A stretch of DNA of 64,000 nt. Source: an uncultured Chitinophagaceae bacterium (GTDB lineage Bacteria > Bacteroidota > Ignavibacteria > UBA10030 > UBA8401). The notes beneath the pieces are model-generated. The model ran no database searches. It was not told the DNA's origin and saw only the letters and a program-made list of their open reading frames with translations. The translations under genes were made by a program, and so were the position numbers. Within the stretch, counting starts at the first letter, position 1. Each line of letters starts with the position of its first letter. Of this stretch, positions 8,316 to 38,537 are shown piece by piece. The stretch spans positions 16,597-80,596 of the forward strand of contig CAZXQG010000005.1 of assembly GCA_964642725.1 (NCBI GenBank), in the 5' to 3' direction.

Positions 8316-8335
8316 CTCTCATGCATAATACGAAG

Positions 8336-8407
8336 AGCTGAAGGTGGGATTTGAACCCACGACCTGCGGTTTACGAAACCGCTGCTCTACCGCTGAGCTA
8401 CTTCAGC
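8336..8407 (-). tRNA. tRNA-Thr (anticodon CGU)
   Basis: Hand-folded cloverleaf: GCTGAAG-TA-GCTC-AGCGGTA-GAGC-A-GCGGT-TTCGTAA-ACCGC-AGGTC-GTGGG-TTCAAAT-CCCAC-CTTCAGC-T. All four stems are perfect; CCA is not encoded. Confidence 0.9.
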
Positions 8408-8430
8408 CATGCTTTGATAATATAAAAAAA

Positions 8431-9141: not shown

Positions 9142-9221
9142 GTGTGTAACTCTTGCACCGTCCATAATATTTTTGCTGGTTGAATGTACATTTTTTTAAT
9201 GAAACTTTCATCCCGCTCAAT

Positions 9222-9250
9222 TTGAGAAACAAAAACATTCAACGTATATT
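9222..9250 (+). promoter_or_regulatory. putative sigma70-type promoter for the 9277 gene
   Basis: TTGAGA-17 nt-TATATT, 27 nt upstream of the ATG. Confidence 0.4.
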
Positions 9251-9276
9251 ATGCATTAGATAAGGGCAGGAAAAAT

Positions 9277-9690
9277 ATGATGAACCGGTTTTTCAAATTT
9301 GGATTCTCGATGGCAGGCTGTGTCGTAGCGTTAGTCTTCGTTCTCTCATCGTGCAAAGACACATCAAATTCGGTTTCGAACTTGGACGAAATAGTTTTCC
9401 CTGCAACGGGTATCAGTTATGAGAAGCAAGTGCAGCCGCTCTTTAACATCGGCTGCGCAACTACCTCATGCCATGATAACCAGGACAAGACGCTCAACCT
9501 TACAAGCTACGGTTTATGGAAGTTAGATCCGGGCGTTATCTATAGCGGGGATACAACCAATAGCAGATTCATATGGTGCATTGAAGCAAGGCCTGGATCA
9601 TCCCCCATGCCGCCGGCGAGGCCCCTGGTACAAAACCAAATCCAGGGATTGAAGAGGTGGATCTACGAGGGTGCAAAAGACACGCAGTAA
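9277..9690 (+). CDS. hypothetical lipoprotein with cytochrome-c-like C-x4-C-H motif
   Basis: Lipobox 'VLSSC'; 'VQPLFNIGCATTSCHD...' and C-terminal 'MPPARPLVQNQIQGLKRWIYEGAKD' resemble planctomycete-type cytochrome-like domains (from memory). The Cys spacing is 4, not 2. Confidence 0.5.
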   Translation: MMNRFFKFGFSMAGCVVALVFVLSSCKDTSNSVSNLDEIVFPATGISYEKQVQPLFNIGCATTSCHDNQDKTLNLTSYGLWKLDPGVIYSGDTTNSRFIWCIEARPGSSPMPPARPLVQNQIQGLKRWIYEGAKDTQ

Positions 9691-11502: not shown

Positions 11503-12267
11503 TTACCTATTTCGCGAGGAATCGGAATTCCATATTTCCCATAGTTTTGCGTATTTTGTAAAAACGTATGCCGACGAAAGAACGGCAAGGATCAGTCCGG
11601 GAATTCCATCCAGGAAGCCTAATCGAAAACAATACATTCTAAGAAAAAGCCATGGAGGTCTGATCAACAGATCGACAAGCCGAAACGGTCTTCCGGCTTT
11701 GAACAATTCCTCGCTTGCCAATGTGGTATACCGATTGAATTTCTCTAAGTAATGGCGAAGATTGGGGTCGGTGAAGTGAAGCAGGTCGTGATGAAGTTCG
11801 CCGATTGTCCCTCGCACTACCAGCCCCTCGTGAACGGCCGAAGTAGTGAACGAAGCTGAGTCCTTGCGAAAAAGCCGTACGACTCTTCCCGGGTACCATC
11901 CGGAATGTTTCATCCAACGACCGAGAAAATACGCCCGACGAGCGACAGAATAAGCCGCCTTTGACGGGGAGGATCCCATCAATGATTGGATTTCAGCGCC
12001 TAACTCCTGTGTGACGCGCTCATCGGCGTCGAGCCATAGAATCCACTTATGATGCGATTTCTCTACTGCAAATGTTTTTGCTTCGGAAAAACTTTTCCAC
12101 GGCTCTATAAAGATGCTTTGAGTGAATTGCCGAGCCAGCGTTACCGTTGTGTCGCTGCTCTCAGCGTCAACGACAACGATTTCGTCCGCCCATTGAACGC
12201 TTTCGAGGCACGCAGCAATATTCCGTTCTTCATTCCGCGTAATGACAATGACTGACAACGGTGTCAT
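11503..12267 (-). CDS. family 2 glycosyltransferase (LPS core type)
   Basis: 'LSVIVITRNEERNIAACLESVQWADEIVVVDAESSDTT' and 'WLDADE' (DxD). Start at ATG 12267 forms an ATGA overlap with the upstream stop. Confidence 0.8.
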   Translation of the reverse strand: MTPLSVIVITRNEERNIAACLESVQWADEIVVVDAESSDTTVTLARQFTQSIFIEPWKSFSEAKTFAVEKSHHKWILWLDADERVTQELGAEIQSLMGSSPSKAAYSVARRAYFLGRWMKHSGWYPGRVVRLFRKDSASFTTSAVHEGLVVRGTIGELHHDLLHFTDPNLRHYLEKFNRYTTLASEELFKAGRPFRLVDLLIRPPWLFLRMYCFRLGFLDGIPGLILAVLSSAYVFTKYAKLWEIWNSDSSRNR

Positions 12268-13451
12268 ACACTCTCCGGGGCGGGAAGCTTCTTCACCGCA
12301 TAAGCCAACCCGACTGTGAACCAGACGAAAACCATTATTTGATGGCTGCCGAAATTCCATTCAAATAACCCATTGAGAAGAAAACCGATGAAGACGGCAA
12401 ATGCCCCCAGCGTAACCGATCCCGCAAGCCAATCGGCAGTTGAGCCTCTGAACATTTGATATTCCACGACGAGTATTTTACAGAACATAGCAACAACGAT
12501 GGAAAGGCCGATGAGACCGAGCGTCACCAACAGCATGACAAAATTATTATGAAGATGCCCCCCTCCTTCGGGGTCGTCCGCAGATTTGTATTGTGCGTAG
12601 ACTTCATGAACATCGGAATCTCCAATCCCGAGCAGAGGATGGTCGGCGAATATTTTCAGGCCCGTTGACCACATCACTAACCGAGAATGATTTGTCGGGT
12701 CGGAAAGGTCGACGATGCTTTTTGCCCGATGCACTTGGCTGGCAGGAGCGAACAAAAAAAACAACGCAAGGAATGCAACAAGAACGAAAAAGAGGTATTT
12801 ATTTTTCAAAATACTTATGACGATCACTCCGCCAAGAAATCCAACCCATGAACTCCGGGTATTGGTCAGGATTAACGCAAGAAATGACGGGACAAAAAAC
12901 AACGACAACCATCCTTTGACCGCCGCCGGTGTTTTCTTGTGGAGGATAAATGGAACAATCATCAGGCACGCGATCATTTTCAAACCGCCCGTCGTCATGT
13001 AGTGTTGAAACACGTATAATCTTCCCTCGTGGACAACATAGTAATAGACTATTTCAATGATTGATGTCACCGCCACCGCGCCAAAAATAATGAGCAGACT
13101 GTTCAACACTTTTTTCCTGGAGTCAAACGACAGCAGCACGAGATACAGAACGGAAATGAGCAGCAGCCGCTTTGTGTTGACAGCCGCCTGAGCCGGAAAC
13201 ACCGCGGTCGCGGTCGTCAAAAATTCGATGCACACATATGCAAGAAAAAAATAATCGAAGGAAGTTCCACAAAGCAACCATCTCCGCTCTGCAAAACTCC
13301 AATACACTACAAGCATCAACGATAGCCCGAAGACAATTGAGGAAGCCGCAATCGATATCGAAATGACGGCTACTTGAGTAACAAGAAGAGCAAAAAGAAT
13401 TGAACTCAGGAGCGCTTTTCGCGACTCGGGAAGAGAATCGGCGGTGGTCAT
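12264..13451 (-). CDS. O-antigen ligase-like (Wzy_C) polytopic membrane protein
   Basis: About 10 hydrophobic segments; 'TNTRSSWVGFLGG' and a periplasmic loop with 'GIGDSDVHEVY...HLHNNF'. Start at 13451 forms an ATGA overlap with the GT9 stop. Confidence 0.7.
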   Translation of the reverse strand: MTTADSLPESRKALLSSILFALLVTQVAVISISIAASSIVFGLSLMLVVYWSFAERRWLLCGTSFDYFFLAYVCIEFLTTATAVFPAQAAVNTKRLLLISVLYLVLLSFDSRKKVLNSLLIIFGAVAVTSIIEIVYYYVVHEGRLYVFQHYMTTGGLKMIACLMIVPFILHKKTPAAVKGWLSLFFVPSFLALILTNTRSSWVGFLGGVIVISILKNKYLFFVLVAFLALFFLFAPASQVHRAKSIVDLSDPTNHSRLVMWSTGLKIFADHPLLGIGDSDVHEVYAQYKSADDPEGGGHLHNNFVMLLVTLGLIGLSIVVAMFCKILVVEYQMFRGSTADWLAGSVTLGAFAVFIGFLLNGLFEWNFGSHQIMVFVWFTVGLAYAVKKLPAPESV

Positions 13452-14599
13452 TGGAAAACTATGTTGTTTGTGATATGTTCCGACGCAGCGGATCTTGTTT
13501 CTTCTATAGCATTGAGAACCGGTTTTAGCTGAAGCGTCTCCATGCATAAGACTGGACGTTTGTCCCTGCACAATTCCCACTGCTTCGGTTTAGGATTACG
13601 GGTTGCACAACCGATACATGGCAGGTCTACTCGTACATACCGTGAAATCTTCCTTGGATCATAGGGGCCAGTGTCCAACGGATCGGCAAATCCCATGAGC
13701 ATCACGACGGGTGTTTGCAGCGCACAGGCGATATGGAGCGCGCCGGTATCGGGCCCGACAACTAGATCGGCACGGTCAAGGAATGCCATGAGTTGTCGGA
13801 GCGACGTCATCCCGACGAGCGAAACGGAGCTATGTTTCATGCCGGACCGAATCGACTCAACTTCACGCTCGTCCTGCTCAATGCCTGTAAACACAATCTT
13901 CGCATCATACAGCTCGACGAGAGAATCTGCAAGCTCGCTGTACCGAACCGGAAGCCATTGGCGGACCGAATTGGGCGCGCTGCATCCCGGATGGAGGCAA
14001 ACAACATAGTCATTATCCGAGATTTGCAGACGATGGAGGTATTCCCTGGCGCTTTTCTTCTCTTCCTCTTTCGCAACGAGAAGAGTGCCGTCAACTTTGC
14101 CGGGGTCAGTCCATTCGAGAACTGTTTCAGTCTGCGCATCGACGGTGTGCAATCCGGGCGTCCGCGGAACCGGAACATCGAGAAGCATTCCGAGCGAATT
14201 GTCCATGCCGCAAAGATATTTCGCTCCGGCCAGTTTCGCCATGATCGTATAATGAGAGTTGGCTTCTTCAACGGCAATGATGTCATAGCGATAGCGCCGA
14301 AGATGGAGAAACAATTTTGTATGTTCGAGGAGTGAAAACTTCGCGGAGAGTGGAAAAACATTTCGGACGCCGGGAAAACCCTCAAGTAGAGAGACCGACC
14401 TCTCACTGACAACCGCGTCGATCGCAGCTTCTACAAATGTCGTATGGAGCCGCAGCAACACAGGTGTAATCGAGACAACATCGCCGAGCAAACCGTTGCG
14501 AATCACTAGAATGCTCTTTACTCGCTCCCGTTGCCCAGCAAATTGCAAAAAGCGCCCCTTCTTCTTGGAGGGTGCCAATGTTTGACCGGATGGAGTCAT
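13448..14599 (-). CDS. family 9 glycosyltransferase (LPS heptosyltransferase-like)
   Basis: 'ILVIRNGLLGDVVSITPVL', 'GPDTGALHIACALQTPVVMLMG', and a C-terminal Cys cluster common in GT9. Start at 14599 or 14632. Confidence 0.75.
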   Translation of the reverse strand: MTPSGQTLAPSKKKGRFLQFAGQRERVKSILVIRNGLLGDVVSITPVLLRLHTTFVEAAIDAVVSERSVSLLEGFPGVRNVFPLSAKFSLLEHTKLFLHLRRYRYDIIAVEEANSHYTIMAKLAGAKYLCGMDNSLGMLLDVPVPRTPGLHTVDAQTETVLEWTDPGKVDGTLLVAKEEEKKSAREYLHRLQISDNDYVVCLHPGCSAPNSVRQWLPVRYSELADSLVELYDAKIVFTGIEQDEREVESIRSGMKHSSVSLVGMTSLRQLMAFLDRADLVVGPDTGALHIACALQTPVVMLMGFADPLDTGPYDPRKISRYVRVDLPCIGCATRNPKPKQWELCRDKRPVLCMETLQLKPVLNAIEETRSAASEHITNNIVFQ

Positions 14600-14624
14600 G
14601 TCGGAAATATTTGTTTCCCAAACT

Positions 14625-16490
14625 TCATACATTGAACTGAAGGTCGTACAAACGTTTATACAAACCATCTTTCTGTTTCATCAACTCGACATGCCGCCCC
14701 ATTTGTTCGATTCTTCCGTTCTCAAGGACGACAATCCGGTCCGCATTCCGGATCGTTGACAACCGGTGCGCAATCACAAGAGAGGTGCGGTTCTTCATCA
14801 AACGTTCAATCGCTTCCTGAACGAGGATCTCACTCTCCGAATCGAGTGCCGATGTCGCTTCATCAAATATCATGATAGGAGGGTTCTTCAGCAATGCACG
14901 GGCAATAGAAAGACGCTGCCGCTGCCCTCCGGAGATTTTTACACCCCGGTCGCCGATGATCGAATCGAACCCTCTCGGCAACGCATCAATAAACTCGAGA
15001 GCGTTCGCAGCTGCAGCGGCATCGCGGATCTTCTCCTCAGGACAATCGCTCAACCCATAGGCGATGTTGCTGCGCACGGTATCGTTAAATAAAATTGTCT
15101 CCTGGGTCACAATCCCGATCTGCTTCCTGAGCGATTGCAATTCTATCAAACGTATGTCAACTCCGTCGATCGTAATCAATCCTTCGACTGGATCGTAAAA
15201 TCGCGCGAGAAGGTCAACGAGGGTCGTCTTGCCGCTGCCGCTCGGTCCGACAATTGCAACGACTTCCCCTTTCCGAACCCTGAGGTTGATACCGCGGAGG
15301 ATTTCTTTAGTCTCGCCTCCCTGCGGCACTCCGTTCGAATAGAAGAAGGAGACGTTTTTGAACTCAATGCAATCGCGAAGATTGCCGATGGAAGCGGCCT
15401 GAGGATGGTTTCGAATCGAAGGTTCAATATCGAGTATCTCAAAAATCCGTTTTCCCGCAGCTGAAAATTCTTGCAGCCGGTTAATCACGCTGCTCAGTTC
15501 CTTGACAGGAGGCATCACCTGGAATATCGCAAGAAGGAAACCGAGAAACTCCGCCGCCTTCATCTCTCCCGTCACGAGGACCTGCCGTCCACCGTACCAT
15601 ATGATGGCGACTGCCGCCAGAATCGAGAGGAACTCCGTGACCGGAGTTGACAGATTCCTGATCCTGGTCATTGTGAGAACAGTGCGAAAATAACTCTTTG
15701 TTTCTTTCCTGAATTTCTTGTCTTCGAAATCTTCCATCCCGAAGGCCTTGACCACCTTGACGTTCGAGATCGTTTCCTGCAAAACCGAAGTGATATCAGC
15801 CATCTTCTCCTGTATTACTCTGCTTTCTTTGTGAAGCCGCAAGCCGATCCAACTGATGATAAATAGGGAAAACGGGAATACGCCGAATGAAAGGAGAGTT
15901 AACTTCCAGCTTAAGGTAAAGGCAATACCCAGAAAAACCATAACAAGGAGCGGCTCTCGAATCAAAGTTACGAAGCTTGCCGAGACGCCGCCGTTGACGA
16001 CGTTGACATCGTTCGTTACCCGGGAAATGAGATTGCCCGTCCGCTCGTTGGTGAAATAGCTGAGCGAGAGATTGTGAAGATGACGGAACAACTCATTCCG
16101 AATATCCATCATCAAACCCTGCTCAACATGCGCCATCGTGTAGGATTGGACATAACCGAAGGCGTTCTTGAGCAGAAACACGACGAGAATGATAATGCAA
16201 ATCCGGTAGAGCGAGTCCGTTTTCGAGCCCGCGAATACGAATGATTGGAGCGATTGATCGAACCGTTGTTTAAAGCCGACTATTTCGTTCGGCACGACGC
16301 TGTTCCGCGGAGGAGTGGCTTGCTGGAGCGCTTGCGGGGTTGATTGATCGAACAGTGTTTCGAGAAGCGGGATCGAGAGATAAATTGAAGCGCCGCTAAA
16401 AATAGAATAGAATATCGTACACGCTACAGAAATCGTCAGCGACTTCCAGTACGGCCGGACATAGCGGAGTATTCTCAAGAACACACGCAT
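14625..16490 (-). CDS. msbA: ABC transporter permease/ATPase, MsbA-like lipid A exporter
   Basis: 621 aa; 6-TM N-terminal half; Walker A 'GPSGSGKTT', signature 'ISGGQRQRLSIARA', Walker B 'MIFDEATSALD'. Sits in the LPS-core cluster. Confidence 0.8.
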   Translation of the reverse strand: MRVFLRILRYVRPYWKSLTISVACTIFYSIFSGASIYLSIPLLETLFDQSTPQALQQATPPRNSVVPNEIVGFKQRFDQSLQSFVFAGSKTDSLYRICIIILVVFLLKNAFGYVQSYTMAHVEQGLMMDIRNELFRHLHNLSLSYFTNERTGNLISRVTNDVNVVNGGVSASFVTLIREPLLVMVFLGIAFTLSWKLTLLSFGVFPFSLFIISWIGLRLHKESRVIQEKMADITSVLQETISNVKVVKAFGMEDFEDKKFRKETKSYFRTVLTMTRIRNLSTPVTEFLSILAAVAIIWYGGRQVLVTGEMKAAEFLGFLLAIFQVMPPVKELSSVINRLQEFSAAGKRIFEILDIEPSIRNHPQAASIGNLRDCIEFKNVSFFYSNGVPQGGETKEILRGINLRVRKGEVVAIVGPSGSGKTTLVDLLARFYDPVEGLITIDGVDIRLIELQSLRKQIGIVTQETILFNDTVRSNIAYGLSDCPEEKIRDAAAAANALEFIDALPRGFDSIIGDRGVKISGGQRQRLSIARALLKNPPIMIFDEATSALDSESEILVQEAIERLMKNRTSLVIAHRLSTIRNADRIVVLENGRIEQMGRHVELMKQKDGLYKRLYDLQFNV

Positions 16491-19213: not shown

Positions 19214-20128
19214 TCATGGTTCATTGTTGATTGTCTTCTTAATGTATAGCATTGCCGTCCCCTCCGTCCCGATTCGAAACCTCGACTGCAGCTCTTCTAC
19301 GGTTGCGCCATTCTGTGCCATAATCGTCGCAGCAGTGTGCCGCAGCGAAAACGCTGTAATCCGGCGAACTTTTCCGTTCTTCACGCCTGCTCTCTCAAGA
19401 TACATGTTGACGCGCTGCCTGATTCCGCGTGTCGTCATTCTCTTTCCACGTGTCCGATTCCCTGCACTCATGATCAATGGTTCATTTTCTCGGGCATCAT
19501 TTCTGAAGGCAAGATATCCGAGGAACGCTTCCTTCACATCGTTAGGAAGAAGAACGGTTGTTTCTTTTGTCGTTTTACCTTTGCCCTGAACATTGAAGAT
19601 CATTGTCGAGCTAACGATCTTCAAATCGCCGATATTCGCACGGATCAATTCTATCTCCGATAATCCGCATCCGACCATCGCTTTGATGATTGCGAAGTCT
19701 CGAAACCCCCGCTCATCATTCCGATCGATCGACTGAAAAATCGCTTGAATATCCTGCAACGAGATCGTCTCTCGAGAATGCTGCTGCGGTCTCTTGTTTC
19801 CTTTTACCTCTTTTGCAGGATTCCGTTCCAGGACTTTGACCTCGACCAAATAATCAAAAAGACGCCTCAGTGCCGTAAGGTAAGTGGAGACCGAAACTGG
19901 TGCAAGCTTGATTTTTTTTATTAAATATGTCTTGTATCGCTCTACATCCGCTACACGGAACAGAAATTTTTGATCCAACGGATACCAGCGCATGAATTCA
20001 TGCAGTGAGCGTTCATACGTGCCGCGAGTTTCGGGCTTGCTCTTTCGCAGTTCTTTCAGAAATCCCTCGAAATGGCCGAGCAATCGCTTGTGAGAAATCC
20101 GGACAGAAGAAAATTGCGACGATTTCAT
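19214..20128 (-). CDS. tyrosine recombinase-fold protein (XerC/XerD-like) with non-canonical active-site residues
   Basis: 304 aa; an N-terminal SAM-like core-binding region and a C-terminal 'LRHTAATIM...LYIKK' align by eye to XerD. Ser, Phe and Ile fall at the Arg-I, His-II and His/Trp-III positions. Confidence 0.75.
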   Translation of the reverse strand: MKSSQFSSVRISHKRLLGHFEGFLKELRKSKPETRGTYERSLHEFMRWYPLDQKFLFRVADVERYKTYLIKKIKLAPVSVSTYLTALRRLFDYLVEVKVLERNPAKEVKGNKRPQQHSRETISLQDIQAIFQSIDRNDERGFRDFAIIKAMVGCGLSEIELIRANIGDLKIVSSTMIFNVQGKGKTTKETTVLLPNDVKEAFLGYLAFRNDARENEPLIMSAGNRTRGKRMTTRGIRQRVNMYLERAGVKNGKVRRITAFSLRHTAATIMAQNGATVEELQSRFRIGTEGTAMLYIKKTINNEP

Positions 20129-20264
20129 TCTCCTACAGCAGAGTTTTTAGTGGGACGTTTCGCTCATCTTTCTTCTCAATAACAGAAATTAACGAAAATT
20201 GAAGAGAGAAGCAACGAAACGCGCTGCTGGGTACCGACTCAGTTTGATAAATTTTCTGGGTGGA

Positions 20265-20311
20265 ACAGGCATTCATGCCTGTCAGATAGGTCAGACAAGA
20301 ATGTCTGACCT
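20265..20311. repeat. REP-like twin palindromic hairpins
   Basis: ACAGGCA-TTCA-TGCCTGT (20265..20282) and AGGTCAGACA-AGAA-TGTCTGACCT (20288..20311), 5 nt apart in a 310-nt intergenic region. Confidence 0.5.
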
Positions 20312-20376
20312 ACAGATACATTGAAATTAAGTCACTACCCGCTGTTGCAAGCCGTCTGACTGCTTCTATCAATTGG

Positions 20377-20404
20377 ATGGATTGAAAATCAATCCATTTT
20401 TTTT
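20377..20404 (+). terminator. orphan intrinsic terminator-like hairpin upstream of proB
   Basis: ATGGATTGA-AAA-TCAATCCAT followed by T8 on the plus strand; no plus-strand gene lies upstream. Confidence 0.55.
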
Positions 20405-20430
20405 GAATTAGCATTTTTATTTATTATCAT
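20403..20430 (+). promoter_or_regulatory. putative proBA promoter
   Basis: TTGAAT-16 nt-TATCAT. The -10 box ends 8 nt before the proB ATG. Confidence 0.3.
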
Positions 20431-20438
20431 TTAACGGT

Positions 20439-21575
20439 ATGCATCGAATGAAAGAAATATTGCTTGCCGGGAATAGCGTCGTCATCAAGATTGGGACGAA
20501 CCTCCTGGCCGACCGGGCGAAAGGGATCAACCGCGACAGGATCGATACGATCGCGAAAAGTGTCTCCTCCCTGCAATCTCGCGGCAAGCAGGTCGCAATT
20601 GTTACATCGGGTGCGATAGGCGCGGGGATGTTATTGCTTGGAATGAAAGAACGTCCGAGGGCGATTCCCGAAAAACAGGCTGCCGCAGCCATCGGTCAGC
20701 CGATTCTCATGGAAGTATATGAGAATGCGTTCAGAAAATATCACTGTACGATTGCCCAAATTCTTTTGACAAAGGATGATTTCGTCAACAGGGCGCGGTA
20801 TATCAACACCAAGAACACATTCTCTGCCTTGTTCGAAAAAGGAGCCGTCCCGATCGTCAACGAGAATGATACCGTAGCCGTAGAGGAAATCAAGCTCGGG
20901 GATAACGATAATCTTTCGGCCCTTGTTGCCAACCTTATCGAAGCAGACCTGCTGATTATCCTCAGCGATGTCGATGGACTTTTTTCAGATAACCCGACGA
21001 GAAATCCGAAAGCTCAATTGATTTCCGTTGTGGACAAGGTTACGCCAAATGTTGAAAAACTGGCGAAGAAGCATGGCAGTGAAATGAGCACCGGCGGGAT
21101 GTTTACCAAGGTCCAAGCAGCGAAGCAATGCGTTTCCGCGGGAATTCCCGTCATCATCGCAAACGGAACGAATCCCGGCATTCTCGATGAAATCTTCGCC
21201 GGCAAGAATTCAGGAACGCTGTTCCTGCCCGCAAACAATAAAATGAATGTGCGAAAAAAGTGGATCGGATTTGTGTCGGATTCAAAAGGGGTCGTCGTTG
21301 TTGACGGCGGGGCAAAAAGCGCTTTACTCATAAAACAAAAAAGTCTTCTTCCATCCGGAGTTCTGGAAGTGCGTGGAGAGTTTGAGACGGACGATACGAT
21401 TTCAGTCGTAGACACGGAAGGAAATGAAATTGCACGGGGCGTTGCGGGATATGCATCATCCGACCTCAATAAAATTAAGGGGAAGAAAACCAGCGAGATT
21501 CAGAAAACCCTAAACCGGAAAGGCAGCGACGAAGTCATTCACCGTAATAATCTTGTGTTGATTGGAACAGAATAA
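20439..21575 (+). CDS. proB: glutamate 5-kinase (with PUA domain)
   Basis: 378 aa; 'VVIKIGTNLL', 'VTSGAIGAG', 'VPIVNENDTVAVEEIKLGDNDNLSALVA', and a C-terminal PUA-like region. Confidence 0.95.
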   Translation: MHRMKEILLAGNSVVIKIGTNLLADRAKGINRDRIDTIAKSVSSLQSRGKQVAIVTSGAIGAGMLLLGMKERPRAIPEKQAAAAIGQPILMEVYENAFRKYHCTIAQILLTKDDFVNRARYINTKNTFSALFEKGAVPIVNENDTVAVEEIKLGDNDNLSALVANLIEADLLIILSDVDGLFSDNPTRNPKAQLISVVDKVTPNVEKLAKKHGSEMSTGGMFTKVQAAKQCVSAGIPVIIANGTNPGILDEIFAGKNSGTLFLPANNKMNVRKKWIGFVSDSKGVVVVDGGAKSALLIKQKSLLPSGVLEVRGEFETDDTISVVDTEGNEIARGVAGYASSDLNKIKGKKTSEIQKTLNRKGSDEVIHRNNLVLIGTE

Positions 21576-22828
21576 TGGCCGCCGGCAACGTCCCCAAAAA
21601 AGCCAGATCGGTAAAAGAAGCAAGCAGCGTATTGTACAATTGCTCATCACGGCAGAAGAACGCCTTGCTCAAAGCGATTGTCTTTCGACTACGCGATCAA
21701 ATTCCAGAGATTCTCCAAGCGAACAAAAAGGATCTCAAAAGCGCCGCAGCCGCAAAGTTATCAGACGTGTTAACAGATCGCCTCACATTGAATGAACAAC
21801 GGATAGCGCAAATGATGGAAGGGGTAAAGGACGTCATTAAATTAAGCGACGCCGTCGGCACTGTAGTCGAGAAAATAAAGAGACCGAATGGACTCTGTAT
21901 AGAGAAAATGCGAGTTCCCCTGGGTGCAGTGGGTATTATTTACGAATCGCGGCCTAATGTGACAATCGATGCGGCAGCGCTCTGCCTAAAATCCGGAAAT
22001 GCAGTATTGCTTCGCGGAGGTTCCGAAGCAATCCACACAAACAAAAAACTTGTTGCCGTTATCAAAACAGCGCTGAACGAGGTCGACCTTCCTGCGGGCT
22101 GCGTCGAGTTTATTGATACCACGGACCGAGCCGCAGTGCTGGAGATGTTGAAGCAAGAAAAATATCTCGACGTGGTCATTCCCCGAGGGAGTCAGCAACT
22201 GATCAGTTTTATTCAGGCAAACTCCTCCGTGCCCGTAATCGCACACGGCGAGGGCAATTGCCATATCTATGTGGACAACTCTGCCGACATTGCAATGGCA
22301 GAAGAGATTGTCTTCAATGCTAAAGTCCAAAGGCCGTCAGTCTGCAACGCTGCTGAAAAACTGTTAGTCCACAGTTCCATTGCCGCACAATTCCTTCCTC
22401 GCGTAGCACGAAGGCTATCGCGCGCGGGAGTTGAAATCAGAGGGGACAAAGAAACGCTTGCATTTGTTGAGAATGCAATTCCTGCTGCACAAACCGATTG
22501 GAGTAAAGAATATCTGGACTTGATCATCGCAATAAAAGTAGTAAAAAACCTCGATGCAGCGATCATGCATATCAACCGGTACGGTTCACACCATTCCGAT
22601 GCGATCGTCACGCAAAACACAAGTCATGGCGAACGATTCTTACGGGAGGTCGATTCGGCCGCTGTGTATGTGAACGCTTCGACGCGGTTTACCGATGGTT
22701 TTGAATTCGGCCTTGGCGCGGAAATAGGGATAAGCACGCAAAAGCTTCATGCGCGCGGTCCGATGGGACTCGTCGATCTGACAAGCATTAAGTACGTCGT
22801 TCACGGGAAGGGACAGATCAGAAAGTAG
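21575..22828 (+). CDS. proA: glutamate-5-semialdehyde dehydrogenase (gamma-glutamyl phosphate reductase)
   Basis: 417 aa; 'GAVGIIYESRPNVT', 'VCNAAEKLLVH', 'GSHHSDAIVT', 'YVNASTRFTDG'. TAATG overlap with proB. Confidence 0.95.
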   Translation: MAAGNVPKKARSVKEASSVLYNCSSRQKNALLKAIVFRLRDQIPEILQANKKDLKSAAAAKLSDVLTDRLTLNEQRIAQMMEGVKDVIKLSDAVGTVVEKIKRPNGLCIEKMRVPLGAVGIIYESRPNVTIDAAALCLKSGNAVLLRGGSEAIHTNKKLVAVIKTALNEVDLPAGCVEFIDTTDRAAVLEMLKQEKYLDVVIPRGSQQLISFIQANSSVPVIAHGEGNCHIYVDNSADIAMAEEIVFNAKVQRPSVCNAAEKLLVHSSIAAQFLPRVARRLSRAGVEIRGDKETLAFVENAIPAAQTDWSKEYLDLIIAIKVVKNLDAAIMHINRYGSHHSDAIVTQNTSHGERFLREVDSAAVYVNASTRFTDGFEFGLGAEIGISTQKLHARGPMGLVDLTSIKYVVHGKGQIRK

Positions 22829-22900: not shown

Positions 22901-24658
22901 TCACTCAACGCATTTCATCACAACAAGTGTGATATCGTCGGATTGCGGCGCGCCAGAAGTGTAGCGCGCAATTTCGTTTTGAATTTCATCGAGAGTGCGC
23001 TGAGCTGTCAGCGGGCCGATAGTTCGCAAAAACTCTTCAACCTTCTCTTCTGTATAATCAACCCCTTCGACATTCATCGCTTCGCTTATTCCGTCGGTGA
23101 ACATGACAACGACGTCTCCGGGAAATAGCTGAACGTCTCCCTCGATGTACGGCGCCGCCTCTCTCGTCACGCCGAGAATAATTCCCCCTTCCTTCAGCCT
23201 TTCGATTGACTTGTTCTTCCGCACAACGAAAGGATAATTATGACCCGCATTTACATAACGGAACATTTTAGTGACCGGATCAAAAATTCCCCAGCAAAAG
23301 GTGATGAATTTATCGCTGCCGGTATTGTCGCAAATGAGGCGGTTCACCCGCGAAGTCATTTCAGAGAGAGGAAGATCGAAATGAACAAGCGTTCGGATCG
23401 TTGCCTGGACATTCGCCATCAAAAGCGAAGCGGGCGCCCCTTTGCCCGACACATCACCGATGGCTATTACGCAACGCCCGCCTTCCAGAACAACGACGTC
23501 GTAGTAGTCCCCGCCAACCTGCTTTGAGGAGATGTTCAAGGCCGCAAGATCCAGTCCCGGAATTTTCGGCAGTGAACGTGGAAGCAGGCCTTTTTGAATC
23601 TCGCGGGCGATGTTCAATTCATTTTCCATCTTTTGCTTTTCGACAGCTTCGTAAAAGAGGCGCGTGTTTTCCAATGAAATGATGGCGAGATTTCCAAGAC
23701 TGTAGATGAACTCCAGGTCCGAATCCGAGTACACTCCTCCGCGAAGCCGCTCGCCAAGGCACAACATCCCTTTCACTTCATTCTGCACCTGAAGCGGAAT
23801 AAGAGCAACGATCCCCTGCTCCTCACAGGCCTCCCGAAGAGTCAACAAAACTTTTTTTCGCTGAAGGTCAGATACTAACACGGGTGAAGTGATGTTTTCG
23901 AACAGCACCTGCTTGTATTCTGAAAAATCCTGTGTATTGATCCGCGAAGCAACGGTCTCGCCGTTCCGGAGAAACACTGCATAGCGGCTTGCCCCCACTT
24001 GCCCCATCAGCGTAAACGTGAAAAGCTTCAACAGCTTTTCCCTGTCAAAAATAGCGTTGAACTCTTTGCTGAGCTCGAACAGCGTGCGCAATTCCTGGAC
24101 TTTTTCGTCGAGTGCCCGGTTGACATTCTTCACTTCCCCGAAGGCAATTCCTTTTTCAATCGCCGCTGCGGAGATGCTGATAATTGCCTCGACAAAACCT
24201 TTCTCCTCTGTCGTCAGTTTTTCTTTGCTCACACGTTTGCCTATCCCAAAAAACCCCAGGACGATGCCGTGAGATACGATCGGAAACATCCTCACAATGC
24301 CGATTTTGAAAAGCTGCACCTCATCGGGGCTCATGGTATGGGAAAGGGCAAAGCTCCTTCGTGGAACGCGCGGGAAAACAAATTCTTTTGAAGCAAACTC
24401 AACGGGAATTCCTTTAGAGTTTTCTATACGGAAGTGCTTCTCTTTCGTTTTAATGAGCACAACGCTCTTAGACATCAGGAGTTTCCCCATCAATGTTAAG
24501 AGAACGGTTCCGAGTATGAATTTCAGGTCGAGGGAAGAATTCACAATGTTGCTGAATTCAAACAACGGCGTAATATCGGCAAGGCGATTGATGTTCGGCG
24601 AATGCGTGGAAGGCTTCAAAAGGAACGATCCTTGGCGTTCATAATTCGGATGCCTCAT
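22901..24658 (-). CDS. GAF-GAF-PP2C (SpoIIE/RsbU-type) serine phosphatase
   Basis: 585 aa; the C-terminal 'GGDYYDVV...IGDVSGKGAPASLLMA...FTDGISEA...SDDITLVVMKC' are PP2C/SpoIIE motifs, and the N-terminal two-thirds look GAF-like. Confidence 0.8.
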   Translation of the reverse strand: MRHPNYERQGSFLLKPSTHSPNINRLADITPLFEFSNIVNSSLDLKFILGTVLLTLMGKLLMSKSVVLIKTKEKHFRIENSKGIPVEFASKEFVFPRVPRRSFALSHTMSPDEVQLFKIGIVRMFPIVSHGIVLGFFGIGKRVSKEKLTTEEKGFVEAIISISAAAIEKGIAFGEVKNVNRALDEKVQELRTLFELSKEFNAIFDREKLLKLFTFTLMGQVGASRYAVFLRNGETVASRINTQDFSEYKQVLFENITSPVLVSDLQRKKVLLTLREACEEQGIVALIPLQVQNEVKGMLCLGERLRGGVYSDSDLEFIYSLGNLAIISLENTRLFYEAVEKQKMENELNIAREIQKGLLPRSLPKIPGLDLAALNISSKQVGGDYYDVVVLEGGRCVIAIGDVSGKGAPASLLMANVQATIRTLVHFDLPLSEMTSRVNRLICDNTGSDKFITFCWGIFDPVTKMFRYVNAGHNYPFVVRKNKSIERLKEGGIILGVTREAAPYIEGDVQLFPGDVVVMFTDGISEAMNVEGVDYTEEKVEEFLRTIGPLTAQRTLDEIQNEIARYTSGAPQSDDITLVVMKCVE

Positions 24659-24684
24659 TCGATGTCAATGAGGGGCAAGAATTC

Positions 24685-25122
24685 TTAGTGGAGATATTTA
24701 ATAAGTCTCACGACGTTCTTTTTAGGATGAATCGTGTACTCCACTTTATCCATCAACTTCTTCATCAAATACATTCCCAATCCGCCCCGTTTGTAGTGAG
24801 ACATGTACTCTTTCATGTTCGGGACCGGTATCTGGTTGGGATTAAAATGTTTTCCATGATCCTCGATAAGAATTTCAAACTCCGGCTTTTTCATCGAAAC
24901 GACAATGTCAATTTGCTTGTCCGCGGCATAGCTGTAGGCGTGCTTGATAATGTTCGTACATGCTTCATCAACAGCGAGGGCAATATTGTTGACGTCATCT
25001 TCCTTAAAGCCGAAGACCTTTGCCGCATCGGCGACAAATTCGCGCGCCATGTTCAGCTTCTCCGTCTGGCTTGGAATGCGCAAATTCAATCGAGTTGTCT
25101 TTTGATTACCGCCGCTGGTCAA
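24685..25122 (-). CDS. anti-sigma-type serine kinase (RsbW/SpoIIAB-like, HATPase_c)
   Basis: 145 aa; N-box 'DEACTNIIKHAY' and G-box 'GGLGMYLMKKLMD'. Confidence 0.8.
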   Translation of the reverse strand: MTSGGNQKTTRLNLRIPSQTEKLNMAREFVADAAKVFGFKEDDVNNIALAVDEACTNIIKHAYSYAADKQIDIVVSMKKPEFEILIEDHGKHFNPNQIPVPNMKEYMSHYKRGGLGMYLMKKLMDKVEYTIHPKKNVVRLIKYLH

Positions 25123-25160
25123 CGTTCCAATCTCCTTTTTCCCGTGAGGTTCATGGTTTC

Positions 25161-25541
25161 CTACTTGCTCGATTGTTTCTTTGCATCGAACTTTTTCACC
25201 GCCTCGTGTTCATCGGTGAAGATTTCGTACAACATCGGAAAACCGAGAAGGTCGAAGATATTGTAGACTTTCGGCGACATGTTGGACATCTTGATGTCTC
25301 CCCCACCCGTCCGCACATCCTCGATGAAGGCCATAAACACTCCCAGCCCCGCGCTGGAAATGTATGCCAGGTCCTTGCAATTGACCAAGATATTTAGTTT
25401 CTCTTCTTTGATGAGTTTTTGAAATGCCTCTTCAAGGTTTGGGGCGGTATGCGCATCCAAATATCCCTTCAAGTCCATGACATGGACTTTTCCGCTCACC
25501 CGAAATGAAATCTTGAATTCGTTCATCTGATAACTCCTCAC
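25161..25541 (-). CDS. STAS-domain antagonist (RsbV/SpoIIAA-like)
   Basis: 126 aa; 'NCKDLAYISSAGLGVFMAF' with the conserved phosphorylatable Ser. Confidence 0.8.
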   Translation of the reverse strand: MRSYQMNEFKISFRVSGKVHVMDLKGYLDAHTAPNLEEAFQKLIKEEKLNILVNCKDLAYISSAGLGVFMAFIEDVRTGGGDIKMSNMSPKVYNIFDLLGFPMLYEIFTDEHEAVKKFDAKKQSSK

Positions 25542-25565
25542 AATAATAGTTGAAAATCGTCTCTC

Positions 25566-27662
25566 TCACCGTGGCGCTCCCTTCCATTTCACCACGAACA
25601 CAGTGAGATCATCATCATATCCTTGAGCGTCCGTGTAACTCCAGACGCGTTGAATGATTTCTTCCTTAATCTCTTCCGCAGAATGCGAGCGCTTTTCTTG
25701 AACAACGCTCATCAAACGCTCGTAGCCGAATTCTTCTCCCGCTGAGGAGCGCGATTCCGTAACGCCATCCGTATAAAAAACGCAGACATCCCCCTTATTC
25801 ATCATGATCCTTTTTTCTTCAAGCGAGTCTTCGAATAACATTCCGGCACTCAACCCTAAACCCATGCCGGTCGGTGTAATGTACTCAATCGAGGCAGAAG
25901 TTGCATACAACATCGGGCAATGTCCGGCTCGGCTGAGAACAAGCTCCCCTGTCGAAACATCGAGGACGGCATAAATTAAACTAATAAAAGATCGTTTGTC
26001 AATGCTCGAGATCAGCGACTGATTTGCTTTGATGAGAAATGTTCTGGGAGATGAATAAATTTTGCTGAGCGACTGGAAAATACCTTTCACTTCTGCCATA
26101 TAAAAAGCGGCTCCGACTCCTTTGCCCGAGACATCGCCGATGACGATGCCGACATGGCGGTCATCCAGTATTGCAATATCATAATAGTCGCCGCCAACTT
26201 CGAGGGCCGGTGCGGAGACAGCCTGCATTTCCACGTTCGGGAATATCGGGAGCGTTTGCGGGAGAAGGCGCTTCTGCATTTCCTGTGCGAGTAGTAATTC
26301 CCGCTGAAGACGCTCCTTTTCCAGCGACCGTTGAATCAATGTTGCGTTCTCGATCGCAATGGTCACTTGGTCGGCAAACCCGGACAACACTTCGATGTCG
26401 TCTTGGTCAAAACCGAAATCCATTTGTTTCGTCGCGTAAAGGATTCCTATCAGATTTTGATGCGACACCAGCGGCACCACCAAAAGCGATCCGACCTTCT
26501 TGAGCTTTGTCATATATTTCGTGCGACGGTCGGTGCTCACATCATCGATGAGCAGGACTTTTTTTGAGGAGAATACGAGCGAGCGGATCGAAACCTGATC
26601 GCCGAATAAGATCGTCTGGATATCCTCGGTTGAAATATTCCTCGCAGAGACAATTCCATTGCTGGCGTGGGAGGATTTTCTCTCTCCTTCGTTTGGAAAA
26701 ACTTCCAGCCACGAACTCGACGCCTCACAAACCTCAAAGGTCATCTTCGTGACAGTCTCCGCCAATTCGTTAAGGTCAAACACCTGCGTAATGAGCCTGC
26801 TGAGGTTGTGGAGCGAACTCAATTCGGTCTGTTTCCGGTCGAAGGCTTCTGCCGTCGGCAAATGGAAGAGTGTGCTGATGAATGCCATTCCAAAATACAC
26901 GGCGCCGAACAACGAGGTCAATTGAACAAACGTGTGCAGCGGATAACTGAAATAGAGGAGTGCCTTTGCCAAAAACGGTTTGTCTGAAATGGAGAGAAGA
27001 ATGTTGACCGCCATGAAAGCAAAAAAAGCGAGCAAGGCGTAGACCATCGCATAAATCTTCTCACGACGCGACAGGTACGCGATCCATGACAATCGGAACG
27101 AGTTAACGATAATCATGACGACGGCAAGAACAAAAAAGACGGTCGTGTAAACCGACAGCTCGAGCGGCCGGAGGTTGATCGTCGTCGCAGATGCTAGGAA
27201 GAAAAAGATCAGCAGAATCCAAAAATTGCGCCGCGTCCCTTTTTTCCTTTTATACAACAGCATGTCCTTGATATTGAGCATTGTCATAACCGCCACAATG
27301 CCGGCAGCGATGCTCAGAACGGTGGAAAAAAGAATGGTGATATAATCGCGGGGAAATAATTTGAACGCCCGAGTTTCAAATTCATTGAAGTGCAGCACAC
27401 TTGCAGTGATCGACAGGGCGACAAAGATTCCAGCCCATGCAGCAACCCGACCGATTCGCTGAATCATTGTGAACTGGCGTTCTTTTCTCAGCGTTTCGAT
27501 GTAGAATGTGCAGAGAATAAAAGCAAGAATAACTAACGCTCCGCGGCCAACGGAAAAATTTCCGAGCTCAGCATCGAGGCTCTTCATCGTGGCATCGATA
27601 ATGAACACCGAGCTAAAAAGGAGAATGGAAACGAGGAGTGAAAGTAGTTTTCTAATCTTCAT
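25566..27662 (-). CDS. integral-membrane GAF-PP2C (SpoIIE-type) serine phosphatase
   Basis: 698 aa; about 8 hydrophobic helices in the first 290 aa, a central GAF-like region, and 'GGDYYDIA...IGDVSGKGVGAAFYMA...YTDGVTES...DDDLTVFVVKW'. Confidence 0.8.
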   Translation of the reverse strand: MKIRKLLSLLVSILLFSSVFIIDATMKSLDAELGNFSVGRGALVILAFILCTFYIETLRKERQFTMIQRIGRVAAWAGIFVALSITASVLHFNEFETRAFKLFPRDYITILFSTVLSIAAGIVAVMTMLNIKDMLLYKRKKGTRRNFWILLIFFFLASATTINLRPLELSVYTTVFFVLAVVMIIVNSFRLSWIAYLSRREKIYAMVYALLAFFAFMAVNILLSISDKPFLAKALLYFSYPLHTFVQLTSLFGAVYFGMAFISTLFHLPTAEAFDRKQTELSSLHNLSRLITQVFDLNELAETVTKMTFEVCEASSSWLEVFPNEGERKSSHASNGIVSARNISTEDIQTILFGDQVSIRSLVFSSKKVLLIDDVSTDRRTKYMTKLKKVGSLLVVPLVSHQNLIGILYATKQMDFGFDQDDIEVLSGFADQVTIAIENATLIQRSLEKERLQRELLLAQEMQKRLLPQTLPIFPNVEMQAVSAPALEVGGDYYDIAILDDRHVGIVIGDVSGKGVGAAFYMAEVKGIFQSLSKIYSSPRTFLIKANQSLISSIDKRSFISLIYAVLDVSTGELVLSRAGHCPMLYATSASIEYITPTGMGLGLSAGMLFEDSLEEKRIMMNKGDVCVFYTDGVTESRSSAGEEFGYERLMSVVQEKRSHSAEEIKEEIIQRVWSYTDAQGYDDDLTVFVVKWKGAPR

Positions 27663-35801: not shown

Positions 35802-36146
35802 ATGGTCGAAGTAACCACAGCACTTAAAGCGTTGTCAGAAGAAATTCGAATCAGGCTGCTCCTCGTACTATTACATGAGGAAGCGTGCGTCTGCGAACTC
35901 ATGGCAACGTTTAATATGGCTCAGTCAAAGCTCTCTCATCATTTGATTGCTCTTCGCGATGCTGGATTCATCAAAGATGAAAAAAGAGGAAAATGGAATT
36001 ACTATCGGATCGATACGAACAGCCTCGACCCGATGAAAAAAGAACTTCTCTCTTCACTCACTGGCTGGGTTGACGATGATTCGATCATTGAGAAAGATCG
36101 ATTGACGCTCGAAAAAGTAAAGAACAAAATGCAGATCTGCTGCTAA
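35802..36146 (+). CDS. arsR: ArsR/SmtB family metalloregulator
   Basis: 114 aa; 'EACVCELMATFNMAQSKLSHHLIALRDAGF', the metal-binding CVC motif plus a wHTH. Confidence 0.85.
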   Translation: MVEVTTALKALSEEIRIRLLLVLLHEEACVCELMATFNMAQSKLSHHLIALRDAGFIKDEKRGKWNYYRIDTNSLDPMKKELLSSLTGWVDDDSIIEKDRLTLEKVKNKMQICC

Positions 36147-36163
36147 TTTTTTTGAATTAACAT

Positions 36164-36179
36164 ATCAACAATAATTGAT
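36164..36179. promoter_or_regulatory. candidate ArsR operator 2 (ATCAA-N6-TTGAT)
   Basis: tATCAAcaataaTTGATg, with the same half-sites and spacing as operator 1, 16 nt upstream of the arsM ATG. Confidence 0.45.
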
Positions 36180-36194
36180 GAAAGGATTTTCCTC

Positions 36195-36974
36195 ATGAAT
36201 ACCGACCTGGAAATTAAAGAAAACGTTAAGGAGAAGTATTCACAGATAGCAAAGGGCCAGATTTCTGTTATTGCCACGAAAACTTCCTCCTGCGGTTCGG
36301 GGCAGAGTTCTTGCTGCGGAACCGGCTCCGAATCCCTGGTGCAGATGTCGTTGGACTACCATCCAGAGGATCTTTCAAACTTGCCGGAAGGGGCTGACTT
36401 GGGGCTTGGCTGCGGTGTTCCGACTGCGTTTGCTGATTTGAAAGAGGGGTATACGGTTCTTGACCTCGGTTCCGGCGCCGGCATTGATGTATTCATCGCG
36501 GCCCGGCATGTTGGCATTACTGGAAAGGCCATCGGCGTCGATATGACAGAGGCAATGATCGATAAGGCAAAAATCAACGCGAAGAAAATCAATGCAACAA
36601 ACGTCGAATTCCGGCTCGGCGAAATCGAGGCATTGCCGGTTGAAAACGCTTCTGTTGACCGCGTCATCAGTAACTGCGTGATCAATCTTGTGCCAAACAA
36701 GGAGAACGCATTCCGGGAAATCTATCGCGTCCTGAAACCGGGAGGCAAATTCACCGTGTCCGATATCGTTGTTGATGGCGCCATTTCCGTGGAAGAAAGA
36801 AACAACGCCGCATTGTGGGCAGGATGTATCAGCGGGGCGATCGACAGAAACGAATACATCGCGATCATTAAAAACGCGGGTTTCAAGAATGTTGACATCG
36901 TCTCTGAAAAACATTACGATTACAAGCTCGACAATGCGCGTTTGAATTCGATAACCATTTCCGGGACAAAATGA
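36195..36974 (+). CDS. arsM: arsenite S-adenosylmethionine methyltransferase
   Basis: SAM motif 'VLDLGSGAGIDVF'. Cys residues at the positions recalled for ArsM: 'SSCGSGQSSCCG', 'GLGCGVP', 'SNCVINL', 'WAGCISGA'. Confidence 0.85.
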   Translation: MNTDLEIKENVKEKYSQIAKGQISVIATKTSSCGSGQSSCCGTGSESLVQMSLDYHPEDLSNLPEGADLGLGCGVPTAFADLKEGYTVLDLGSGAGIDVFIAARHVGITGKAIGVDMTEAMIDKAKINAKKINATNVEFRLGEIEALPVENASVDRVISNCVINLVPNKENAFREIYRVLKPGGKFTVSDIVVDGAISVEERNNAALWAGCISGAIDRNEYIAIIKNAGFKNVDIVSEKHYDYKLDNARLNSITISGTK

Positions 36975-37402
36975 AACCGAAGATTCTCATTCTCTGCACT
37001 GGCAATTCCTGCCGAAGTCAAATGGCCGAGGGATTTCTGAAGTCATTGGATCCTTCACTTCATGTCTTTTCAGCGGGAACCAACCCCGCGGCGCGCGTCC
37101 ATCCGCTCGCCTCAAAAGTGATGAAAGAAGTCGGTATAGACATCGGCGGCAATAAACCAAAGGATGTCGAGGAGTTTATCAACGATTCTTTCGATTACGT
37201 AATTACAGTTTGCGATAATGCGAAAGAAACATGCCCTGTCTTCATTGGAAAGGTTCATCATAGATTACATATGGGATTCGACGATCCTGCTGAAGCCGTC
37301 GGAACGGAAGAAGAAGTTGCGGCTGTGTTCCGGCGTGTTCGTGATGAAATAAGAAAAACGTTCACCAGATTCAATGAACAGAAGATCACAAAGGCATCAT
37401 AG
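36971..37402 (+). CDS. arsC: arsenate reductase, LMW-PTP / thioredoxin-coupled type
   Basis: 'ILILCTGNSCRSQMAEG' P-loop and 'VITVCDNAKETCPVF' (Cys82/Cys89-type pair). ATGA overlap with arsM. Confidence 0.88.
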   Translation: MKPKILILCTGNSCRSQMAEGFLKSLDPSLHVFSAGTNPAARVHPLASKVMKEVGIDIGGNKPKDVEEFINDSFDYVITVCDNAKETCPVFIGKVHHRLHMGFDDPAEAVGTEEEVAAVFRRVRDEIRKTFTRFNEQKITKAS

Positions 37403-37499
37403 AGCAATTTGACAATCCATCATTAACAACATTAACAACGGAAGGCCCTTTGGGAAAGAAACAATTCTGTTTGCTTGCGTCCACATAGGATAAGAACTC

Positions 37500-38537
37500 A
37501 TGGACAACATACGCAAGCAACTCTCACTGATTGATCGATACCTGACGCTTTGGATTTTTCTAGCCATGGGCTTAGGTGTCGGGCTTGGATCATCGTTGCC
37601 CCGCATAGCGGATTTCTGGGACTCGTTAAGCTCCGGAACAACAAACATTCCGATCGCTATCGGGCTCATCCTGATGATGTATCCGCCCCTGGCGAAAGTA
37701 AAGTACGAAGAACTCGGCGATGTGTTCAAGAATAGAAAAGTGCTTCTCCTCTCGCTTATTCAAAATTGGCTCGTCGGCCCGGTGTTAATGTTTCTTCTCG
37801 CAATAATATTTCTGCATGGATATCCAGAATTCATGGCCGGACTGATCATAATTGGCCTGGCTCGCTGCATTGCCATGGTCATTGTATGGAACGAACTCGC
37901 TCAAGGCGATACGGAATACGCTGCAGGCCTTGTCGCGTTCAATTCGATCTTTCAAGTTCTTTTCTTCCCTCTGTATGCCTACTTGTTTCTGACGATCTTC
38001 CCTTCGTGGTTTGGGCTGCAGACATTCGTCGTCAATATCACCATCACCCAAATTGCAAAGAGTGTTTTCATCTATCTCGGCATTCCATTCTTAGCCGGAA
38101 TGATCACGCGATTCATACTGCTGAAACTGAAAAGTAAAGAGTGGTATCAAGAAACATTCATACCGAGAATTTCTCCCATCACGCTTATCGCTCTTTTGTT
38201 CACGATCGTTGTGATGTTCTCTCTCAAAGGAGAATACATACTTAAAATTCCGCTTGACGTTGTTCGCATTGCGATCCCCCTTATTGTCTATTTCGTCACA
38301 ATGTTCGGCATTTCATTCTATCTTGGGAGAAAGAGCGGGGCGGGATACGCAAAGTCAGCGACGCTATCTTTCACAGCAGCAAGTAATAATTTTGAATTAG
38401 CGATCGCTGTTTCTATTGCCGTATTTGGAATTCATTCCGGTGTGGCATTTGCAGCGGTGATTGGTCCCTTGGTTGAAGTGCCGGTGTTGATATCGCTTGT
38501 AAACGTGTCGTTGAGATTGAAGAAGAAATATTATTAA
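37500..38537 (+). CDS. acr3: ACR3 family arsenite efflux transporter
   Basis: 345 aa, about 10 TM segments; '[18 protein letters not shown]', '[13 protein letters not shown]', '[12 protein letters not shown]'. Confidence 0.9.

Follow-up and report, generated by a model that had tools for sequence, protein, structure and literature searches.

The closest described relatives of the system reported here are bacterial partner switches, which combine a STAS protein, an RsbW-like kinase and PP2C phosphatases. In the sigma-B system of Bacillus subtilis (RsbU/RsbP-RsbV-RsbW), two separate PP2C inputs act on one STAS-kinase pair. A PP2C phosphatase with tandem GAF domains, RsbZ, has been described in Clostridioides difficile as an input to the general stress response, together with the linker mechanism (PMC12143880). 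STAS/RsbW-like kinase/PP2C operons also occur in Vibrio fischeri (SypE-SypA), Nostoc (HmpWUV and HcyA-D), Rhodobacter capsulatus (RbaVW) and Bordetella (BtrUVW); these have no identified sigma partner and, where an output has been assigned, it is a non-sigma one (PMC8256260, PMC9127174). Of the modules without an adjacent sigma factor that have been studied, more proved to work through STAS itself or through a partner that is not a sigma factor (SypA, HmpV, RbaV, BtrV, HcyA-D; PMC8256260, PMC9127174), and fewer hold a sigma factor encoded apart from the module, as in Chlamydia (PMC8256260).

Here we describe a four-gene cassette of this kind in a 64-kb stretch of contig CAZXQG010000005.1 (positions 16,597 to 80,596) from an uncultured bacterium of the Ignavibacteria; the whole stretch is called the window below. 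The cassette encodes the same three protein families as the B. subtilis system, in the same logic, with one membrane-bound and one cytosolic phosphatase as inputs. Our analysis, which draws on sequence comparison and structure prediction, suggests that it is very probably a working phospho-switch of the partner-switching type; Ignavibacteria-like bacteria keep its genes together as a unit.

A conserved four-gene cassette

The four genes lie on the minus strand, and their open reading frames (ORFs) are exactly where an earlier inspection of the DNA without database searches (the sequence-only reading) had placed them:

25566-27662, minus strand: membrane input phosphatase, 698 amino acids (aa) (ORF and Pfam)
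25161-25526, minus strand: STAS single-domain protein (RsbV/SpoIIAA-like), 121 aa (orthologue-supported ATG)
24685-25122, minus strand: RsbW-like GHKL serine kinase or 'anti-sigma' binding protein, 145 aa (Pfam HATPase_c_2)
22901-24658, minus strand: cytosolic input phosphatase, GAF-GAF-PP2C, 585 aa (Pfam and hhalign)

In the orthologues, and in the gene calls made for metagenome contigs of identical sequence, the STAS gene starts at the inner ATG; a GTG at 25541 would extend the gene to 25161-25541 and the protein to 126 aa. The sequence-only reading had adopted this longer form, so that the protein and its family stand but its length becomes 121 aa, and the tight spacing, given there as 24-38 nt, stands with gaps of 39, 38 and 26 nt. 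No terminator-like hairpins were found in these gaps.

The small protein is a clear member of the STAS family (Pfam E-value 1.7e-17 over 25161-25541) and passes the cut-off of the anti-sigma-factor-antagonist superfamily model TIGR00377 (70.1 bits against 53.45); its closest solved relatives are SpoIIAA and RsbV. Since its loop YISSAGLG aligns with FMDSSGLG of SpoIIAA, Ser58 falls on the phosphorylated Ser58 of SpoIIAA and is the predicted phospho-acceptor. The kinase matches Pfam HATPase_c_2 (PF13581) across the whole profile (3.1e-32), with the N-box AVDEACTNIIKHAY, a G1 box of the form DxGxxF and the G2 box GGLGMYLM. Its best solved relative is B. subtilis RsbW in the RsbW-RsbV complex (PDB 6m36, 1.2e-16), and among NCBIfam models it is closest to RsbW (6.8e-26). 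Its R27 aligns with R20 of SpoIIAB, a residue that contacts both sigma-F and SpoIIAA. The scores nevertheless fall below the equivalog cut-offs, both for RsbW (NF003144, 90.6 against 145 bits; TIGR01924, 76.3 against 155.05) and for SpoIIAB and SpoIIAA (TIGR01925, 62.8 against 135 bits; TIGR02886, 51.6 against 114.75), so that the kinase and the STAS protein are family members and not orthologues of the Bacillus proteins.

The catalytic motifs of all four proteins are intact and are conserved in sets of 59-80 orthologues that are only 35-60% identical overall. In the STAS protein the loop Y55-I56-S57-S58-A59-G60 is invariant (78/78), which bears out the intact ISSAGLG phospho-loop of the sequence-only reading. 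The N-box and G-box that it reported for the kinase are likewise present and conserved, since A50-N57 (AVDEACTN, including E53 and N57), G90, F93, G114 and G116 are found in all 80 sequences and D88 in 75 of them. The metal-binding aspartates of the membrane phosphatase are equally constant (D492, D495, D510 and D632 in 59/59; D684-D685 in 58/59), as are those of the cytosolic phosphatase (D384, D402 and D522 in 71/71; D387, D574 and D575 in 70/71). Degenerate kinase or PP2C domains, which would have undermined the reading of the cassette as a partner switch, are therefore not what we find. The scores below the Bacillus-family equivalog cut-offs could be taken to point to a decayed remnant, that is, a pseudo-kinase or pseudo-phosphatase module retained by chance. 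Against this stand the (near-)invariant motifs in divergent orthologues, the full-length reading frames, the identical protein on at least 24 contigs and the gene order kept in 69 of 80 genomes; we consider such a remnant extremely unlikely, and the pseudo-enzyme reading is rejected on the conservation of the motifs across the orthologues.

The cassette is not peculiar to the genome of the window. An identical kinase in the same gene order is present on at least 24 metagenome contigs, and a search of a protein collection returned 1572 relatives at an E-value of 1e-10 or better, of which the named ones are labelled as Bacteroidota metagenome-assembled genomes (MAGs). A species-level scan (one genome per species) gave 579 relatives, and gene order was compared in the best 80 loci. 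Most of these 80 come from MAGs that bear the label Bacteroidota, Ignavibacteria or Ignavibacteriales; a few are labelled Calditrichota, and some have other bin labels. The order membrane PP2C-STAS-kinase-cytosolic PP2C is complete in 69 of them and interrupted by contig ends in seven; the membrane phosphatase is missing in the remaining four, three of which carry an extra short PP2C instead. The cassette is complete in Ignavibacterium album, and in a Melioribacter MAG at least its first three genes are present, at which point the contig ends. By these comparisons the cassette is a lineage trait of Ignavibacteria-like bacteria under purifying selection. Its surroundings in the relatives are also conserved: a TPR protein, a MATE transporter, a GT9 heptosyltransferase and an acyltransferase-like protein upstream, and a XerC/D-like recombinase, leuS, a GT2 glycosyltransferase and an MsbA-like ABC transporter downstream.

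Two input phosphatases

Both phosphatases carry the four aspartate motifs of the PP2C fold (GGDYYD, GDVSGKG, TDG and DDxT) and match PF07228 over nearly its full length; the closest solved relatives of the PP2C domain are Rv1364c, RssB and SpoIIE. The two proteins are 27% identical paralogues over the GAF-linker-PP2C region, and both are retained. They differ in what precedes this region.

In the 698-aa protein, SpoIIE/PP2C (aa 500-694; Pfam 1.5e-42) is preceded by one GAF domain (aa 296-439; 1.2e-10) and by an amino-terminal membrane module:

26793-27662, minus strand (aa 1-290): region containing the N-terminal module with eight transmembrane (TM) helices, aa 1 to about 268 of the 698-aa phosphatase (hydrophobic segments and AlphaFold2)

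The sequence-only reading had counted about eight TM helices, and this count holds: eight hydrophobic segments lie within aa 1-266, and an AlphaFold2 model of residues 1-290 consists of eight long helices, with a mean predicted local distance difference test (pLDDT) of 89.8 and a predicted TM-score (pTM) of 0.86. The eighth helix runs unbroken to residue 289, toward the GAF domain. Both the hydrophobic segments and the model indicate short loops without a periplasmic domain. The module has no Pfam match at E-values up to 10 and, although the model is confident, no specific match among folds in the PDB; it occurs only fused to GAF-PP2C.

In the 585-aa protein the order of domains is GAF (aa ~27-175), GAF (aa ~205-331), helical linker and PP2C/SpoIIE (aa 393-582). 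Pfam detects the SpoIIE domain (1.4e-46) and one GAF domain (23.6 bits against a cut-off of 22.4), and has no match for aa 27-175. However, a profile of this N-terminal domain built from 67 orthologues is homologous to the second GAF domain of the same protein (hhalign probability 99.6%, E-value 1.2e-23), and the description of the protein as GAF-GAF-PP2C in the sequence-only reading is therefore correct. These domains and motifs support the RsbU/RsbP-RsbV-RsbW-type core with one membrane and one cytosolic GAF-PP2C input that was proposed there.

Genomic surroundings and possible outputs

Sigma factors were searched for with jackhmmer, using RpoE, SigF, SigB and FliA as probes (confirmed by Pfam as Sigma70 r2/r3/r4) against all ORFs of 60 aa or more in the window and the fetched loci, with flanks of 10 kb on either side. 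No sigma-70-family ORF is found in the window, and no cognate group-3 sigma factor is encoded with the cassette there. The sequence-only reading had seen neither a sigma factor in or beside the operon nor a target of the switch within it, and both observations are upheld: the cassette does not itself encode its output. With these probes, six extracytoplasmic function (ECF) sigma genes turned up in a second set of 80 loci, collected through the second STAS protein described below, so that the negative result in the window is meaningful for ORFs of this size. In the first set (89 loci, centred on the kinase) there is a single ECF sigma gene, in locus L023, which lies within 10 kb of the cassette and is not operonic with it. 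Among about 85 related loci, a sigma gene occurs within 10 kb of the cassette only in L023 and, in the second set, L136. In L136 (618-10339), genes for an ECF sigma factor (8981-9577) and a 418-aa membrane protein (7702-8958) immediately precede the cassette in the same orientation, with a gap of 14 nt, and the cassette has an additional PDZ-GAF-PP2C gene.

A second STAS protein is encoded at the left end of the window:

27-362, plus strand: second STAS protein of 111 aa, encoded at the end of a secD-secF-STAS operon (Pfam STAS 3.4e-14)
27-362 of the window, plus strand; 5128-8336 of locus L087; loci L090-L168: secD-secF-STAS operon (synteny)

The sequence-only reading had noted this protein as an extra, orphan STAS. 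The protein is there and passes the TIGR00377 cut-off (63.8 bits against 53.45), but it is no orphan, its gene being part of a secD-secF-STAS operon that is itself conserved. Contigs reaching further left than the window show secD and secF, whose domain models score above cut-off, immediately upstream. In 59 of the 61 metagenome loci with enough sequence, at identities down to 41%, the gene just before it in the same orientation encodes SecF. The loop NSSGLG is conserved as well, with N55-S56-S57-G58 essentially invariant in 73 sequences. The operon divergently adjoins the cassette in several loci (L015, L016, L018-L021, L108, L109, L112-L114 and L128), which have similar identities to the window proteins. 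In L136 about 400 nt separate the second STAS gene, on the other strand, from the beginning of the operon made up of the ECF sigma gene and the cassette. In L163 (14-1662), a gene for a 432-aa GAF-PP2C protein overlaps by 4 nt the start of a second-STAS homologue, an arrangement that supports the second-STAS family as a candidate PP2C substrate. On this syntenic evidence, which is moderate, the kinase and the phosphatases probably have the second STAS as a further substrate, comparable to the pair RsbV1 and RsbV2 in Chlamydia (PMC8256260).

In the mechanism that we infer from these observations, the 145-aa kinase would phosphorylate Ser58 of the 121-aa STAS protein and probably also Ser56 of the SecDF-linked paralogue. 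The two anciently diverged PP2C phosphatases would take the phosphate off STAS, each gated by its own sensor: the 8-TM module plus one GAF domain in one and the cytosolic tandem GAFs in the other. The sensors would be expected to act through the helical linker preceding PP2C, as proposed for RsbU, RsbP and RsbZ. Dephosphorylated STAS would bind the kinase and phosphorylated STAS would release it, and the switch may thus combine, on one STAS-kinase pair, a signal from the membrane or envelope with one from small molecules in the cytosol. Several points weigh against this picture. The members of the cassette are known from their sequences, and because the kinase scores below the RsbW and SpoIIAB equivalog cut-offs its function is transferred at the level of the family. 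The sequence covered amounts to about 82 kb, and a cognate sigma factor or kinase paralogues may lie beyond it. The link between the second STAS and the kinase is one of synteny; most of the loci where the two adjoin may belong to one clade, and the other cases are two single loci.

The output of the switch can be read in two ways. The output may lie in the phosphorylation itself, of one STAS protein or of both, with the dephosphorylated form of either paralogue acting on a non-sigma target, as for SypA, HmpV, RbaV and BtrV; in one version of this reading the SecDF-linked STAS would modulate SecDF or another envelope process. The presence of two conserved STAS paralogues with invariant phospho-serine loops speaks for such an output, as do the locking of one of them into the secD-secF-STAS operon, the divergent placement of that operon beside the cassette in several loci of similar relatedness, and the richness of the Ignavibacteria surroundings in lipopolysaccharide (LPS) and envelope genes (GT9, acyltransferase-like, GT2 and MsbA-like ABC transporter). 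However, this evidence is syntenic throughout: the adjacency to the cassette may reflect inherited synteny rather than selection, and the housekeeping surroundings may be coincidental. Moreover, no STAS protein is known to regulate SecDF, and our literature search found no paper connecting SecDF with STAS proteins. Non-sigma outputs as such do have precedent (PMC8256260, PMC9127174).

Alternatively, the kinase may act as a genuine anti-sigma factor. It would then sequester a sigma factor whose gene lies outside the cassette region, such as a group-3 one of the FliA type or an ECF sigma factor, and the two phosphatases would then be stress inputs that release it. The closeness of the kinase to RsbW in both NCBIfam and the PDB, the alignment of R27 with SpoIIAB R20 and the ECF sigma and membrane-protein genes directly upstream of the cassette in L136 all point this way. 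Yet, among the loci searched, sigma genes within 10 kb of the cassette are confined to L023 and L136, the surroundings are made up of housekeeping and envelope genes and not of flagellar or stress genes, and no RsbW-type kinase is known to bind an ECF sigma factor. Cultured relatives carry many sigma factors, I. album having genes for 16 of them as well as a cluster of flagellar genes (PMC3362086), which favours a partner encoded apart from the cassette, and kinases that bind sigma factors other than SigB and SigF are known, such as the one for sigma-66 in Chlamydia (PMC8256260); on the other hand, several of the sigma-less modules that have been studied proved to have no sigma partner (PMC9127174, PMC8256260). 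Since the studied modules more often have a STAS or other non-sigma output, we tentatively put the action of dephosphorylated STAS on a non-sigma target first, at somewhat below an even chance, and the holding of a sigma factor encoded elsewhere after it, as a plausible but more doubtful output. The specific proposal that the switch controls SecDF-dependent export or envelope biogenesis through the SecDF-linked STAS, as set by membrane and GAF signals, is improbable; if true, it would be a connection undescribed for any partner-switching system.

The immediate neighbours of the cassette in the window are proB and proA, which are convergent with it, and rpmB, which is divergent. All three score above their NCBIfam cut-offs, in keeping with the proA and rpmB named by the sequence-only reading. 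The 246-nt leader between the operon and rpmB was screened for small ORFs and RNAs and contains nothing credible; promoter and terminator scans were uninformative, as their counts did not exceed shuffled expectation. A XerC/D-like tyrosine recombinase, which scores below both the XerC and the XerD equivalog cut-offs, lies between the cassette and leuS here (region 19214-22828) and in 14 related loci. In the window lineage proB-proA, on the opposite strand, is placed between the recombinase and the cassette, and in L010 the recombinase directly follows the cassette. Other features of the window are:

11503-16490, minus strand: LPS/O-antigen block downstream of leuS (GT2, Wzy_C O-antigen ligase-like protein, GT9 heptosyltransferase, MsbA-like ABC exporter)
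35802-38537, plus strand: arsenic operon arsR-arsM-arsC-acr3 (ArsR HTH_5; ArsM-like S-adenosylmethionine methyltransferase)
8335-8407, minus strand: tRNA-Thr(CGT), the single tRNA of the window

The GT2, GT9 and MsbA-like ABC exporter families also flank the cassette in many Ignavibacteria genomes. In the arsenic operon ArsC is of the low-molecular-weight phosphatase type and the transporter belongs to the Acr3/SBF family. Three ORFs of 137-244 aa have no Pfam match (8431-9165, minus strand; 9277-9690, plus strand; 47553-48023, minus strand), and the remainder of the window consists of ordinary housekeeping genes.

Comparison with described partner switches

Every component type of the cassette is already known, as are partner-switching modules without a sigma factor and PP2C inputs with tandem GAF domains (PMC8256260, PMC9127174, PMC12143880). 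Two points are new in a small way: the 8-TM input module, which is unclassified, and the secD-secF-STAS operon with its conservation. We found no paper in the literature on partner switching in Ignavibacteria. The cassette thus adds a complete and strongly conserved partner switch as a lineage trait of Ignavibacteria-like bacteria, and a clear case in which a single STAS-kinase pair receives input from two sensor phosphatases of different kinds; the cultured hosts I. album and Melioribacter could serve for tests of the switch. The general picture of these systems is unchanged, because sigma-less partner switches and GAF-gated PP2C inputs were known before.

The B. subtilis sigma-B switch is similar in that it also has two phosphatase inputs, but the cassette differs from it in several respects. 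There is no downstream sigB, and genes for RsbR, RsbS, RsbT, RsbQ and RsbX are missing from the cassette. When the four cassette proteins were used to search the ORFs of the whole window iteratively, one kinase, two STAS proteins and two PP2Cs were the only matches, and the stressosome proteins RsbR, RsbS and RsbT are found neither among these ORFs nor in the conserved flanks. The inputs differ as well, being 8-TM plus GAF and GAF-GAF here and the RsbU N-domain or PAS in Bacillus. The architecture of the 585-aa phosphatase is that of C. difficile RsbZ (tandem GAF, helical linker and PPM), a likeness that we draw from the domain layout; RsbZ serves an RsbV-RsbW-SigB pathway (PMC12143880), whereas no such sigma factor is encoded near the cassette.

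The RsbU-RsbV1/RsbV2-RsbW system of Chlamydia trachomatis is comparable in being Gram-negative, in having two STAS proteins and a membrane RsbU-type phosphatase, and in the lack of a SigB-type sigma factor (PMC8256260), for the cassette within the window. A periplasmic sensor domain of chlamydial RsbU is the subject of Soules et al. (2020), listed among the references of PMC8256260. The membrane phosphatase of the cassette, in contrast, combines eight TM helices, joined by short loops, with a GAF domain, and with no periplasmic domain among them the likeness to Chlamydia is one of logic and not of architecture. The cassette also has a second, cytosolic phosphatase, and its second STAS is tied to secDF.

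The SypE-SypA, Hmp, Hcy, Rba and Btr modules are likewise built from STAS, RsbW-like kinase and PP2C proteins, but their input domains and genomic contexts differ from those of the cassette, and none has dual GAF-PP2C inputs flanking a STAS-kinase pair. The Bordetella btrUVW locus carries an ECF sigma gene, btrS. L136 is the only one of the cassette loci that resembles it. Since no cognate sigma factor is encoded in the module and its proteins score below the equivalog cut-offs, the cassette should be filed with the partner-switching systems at large, and not as a SigB or SigF regulator.

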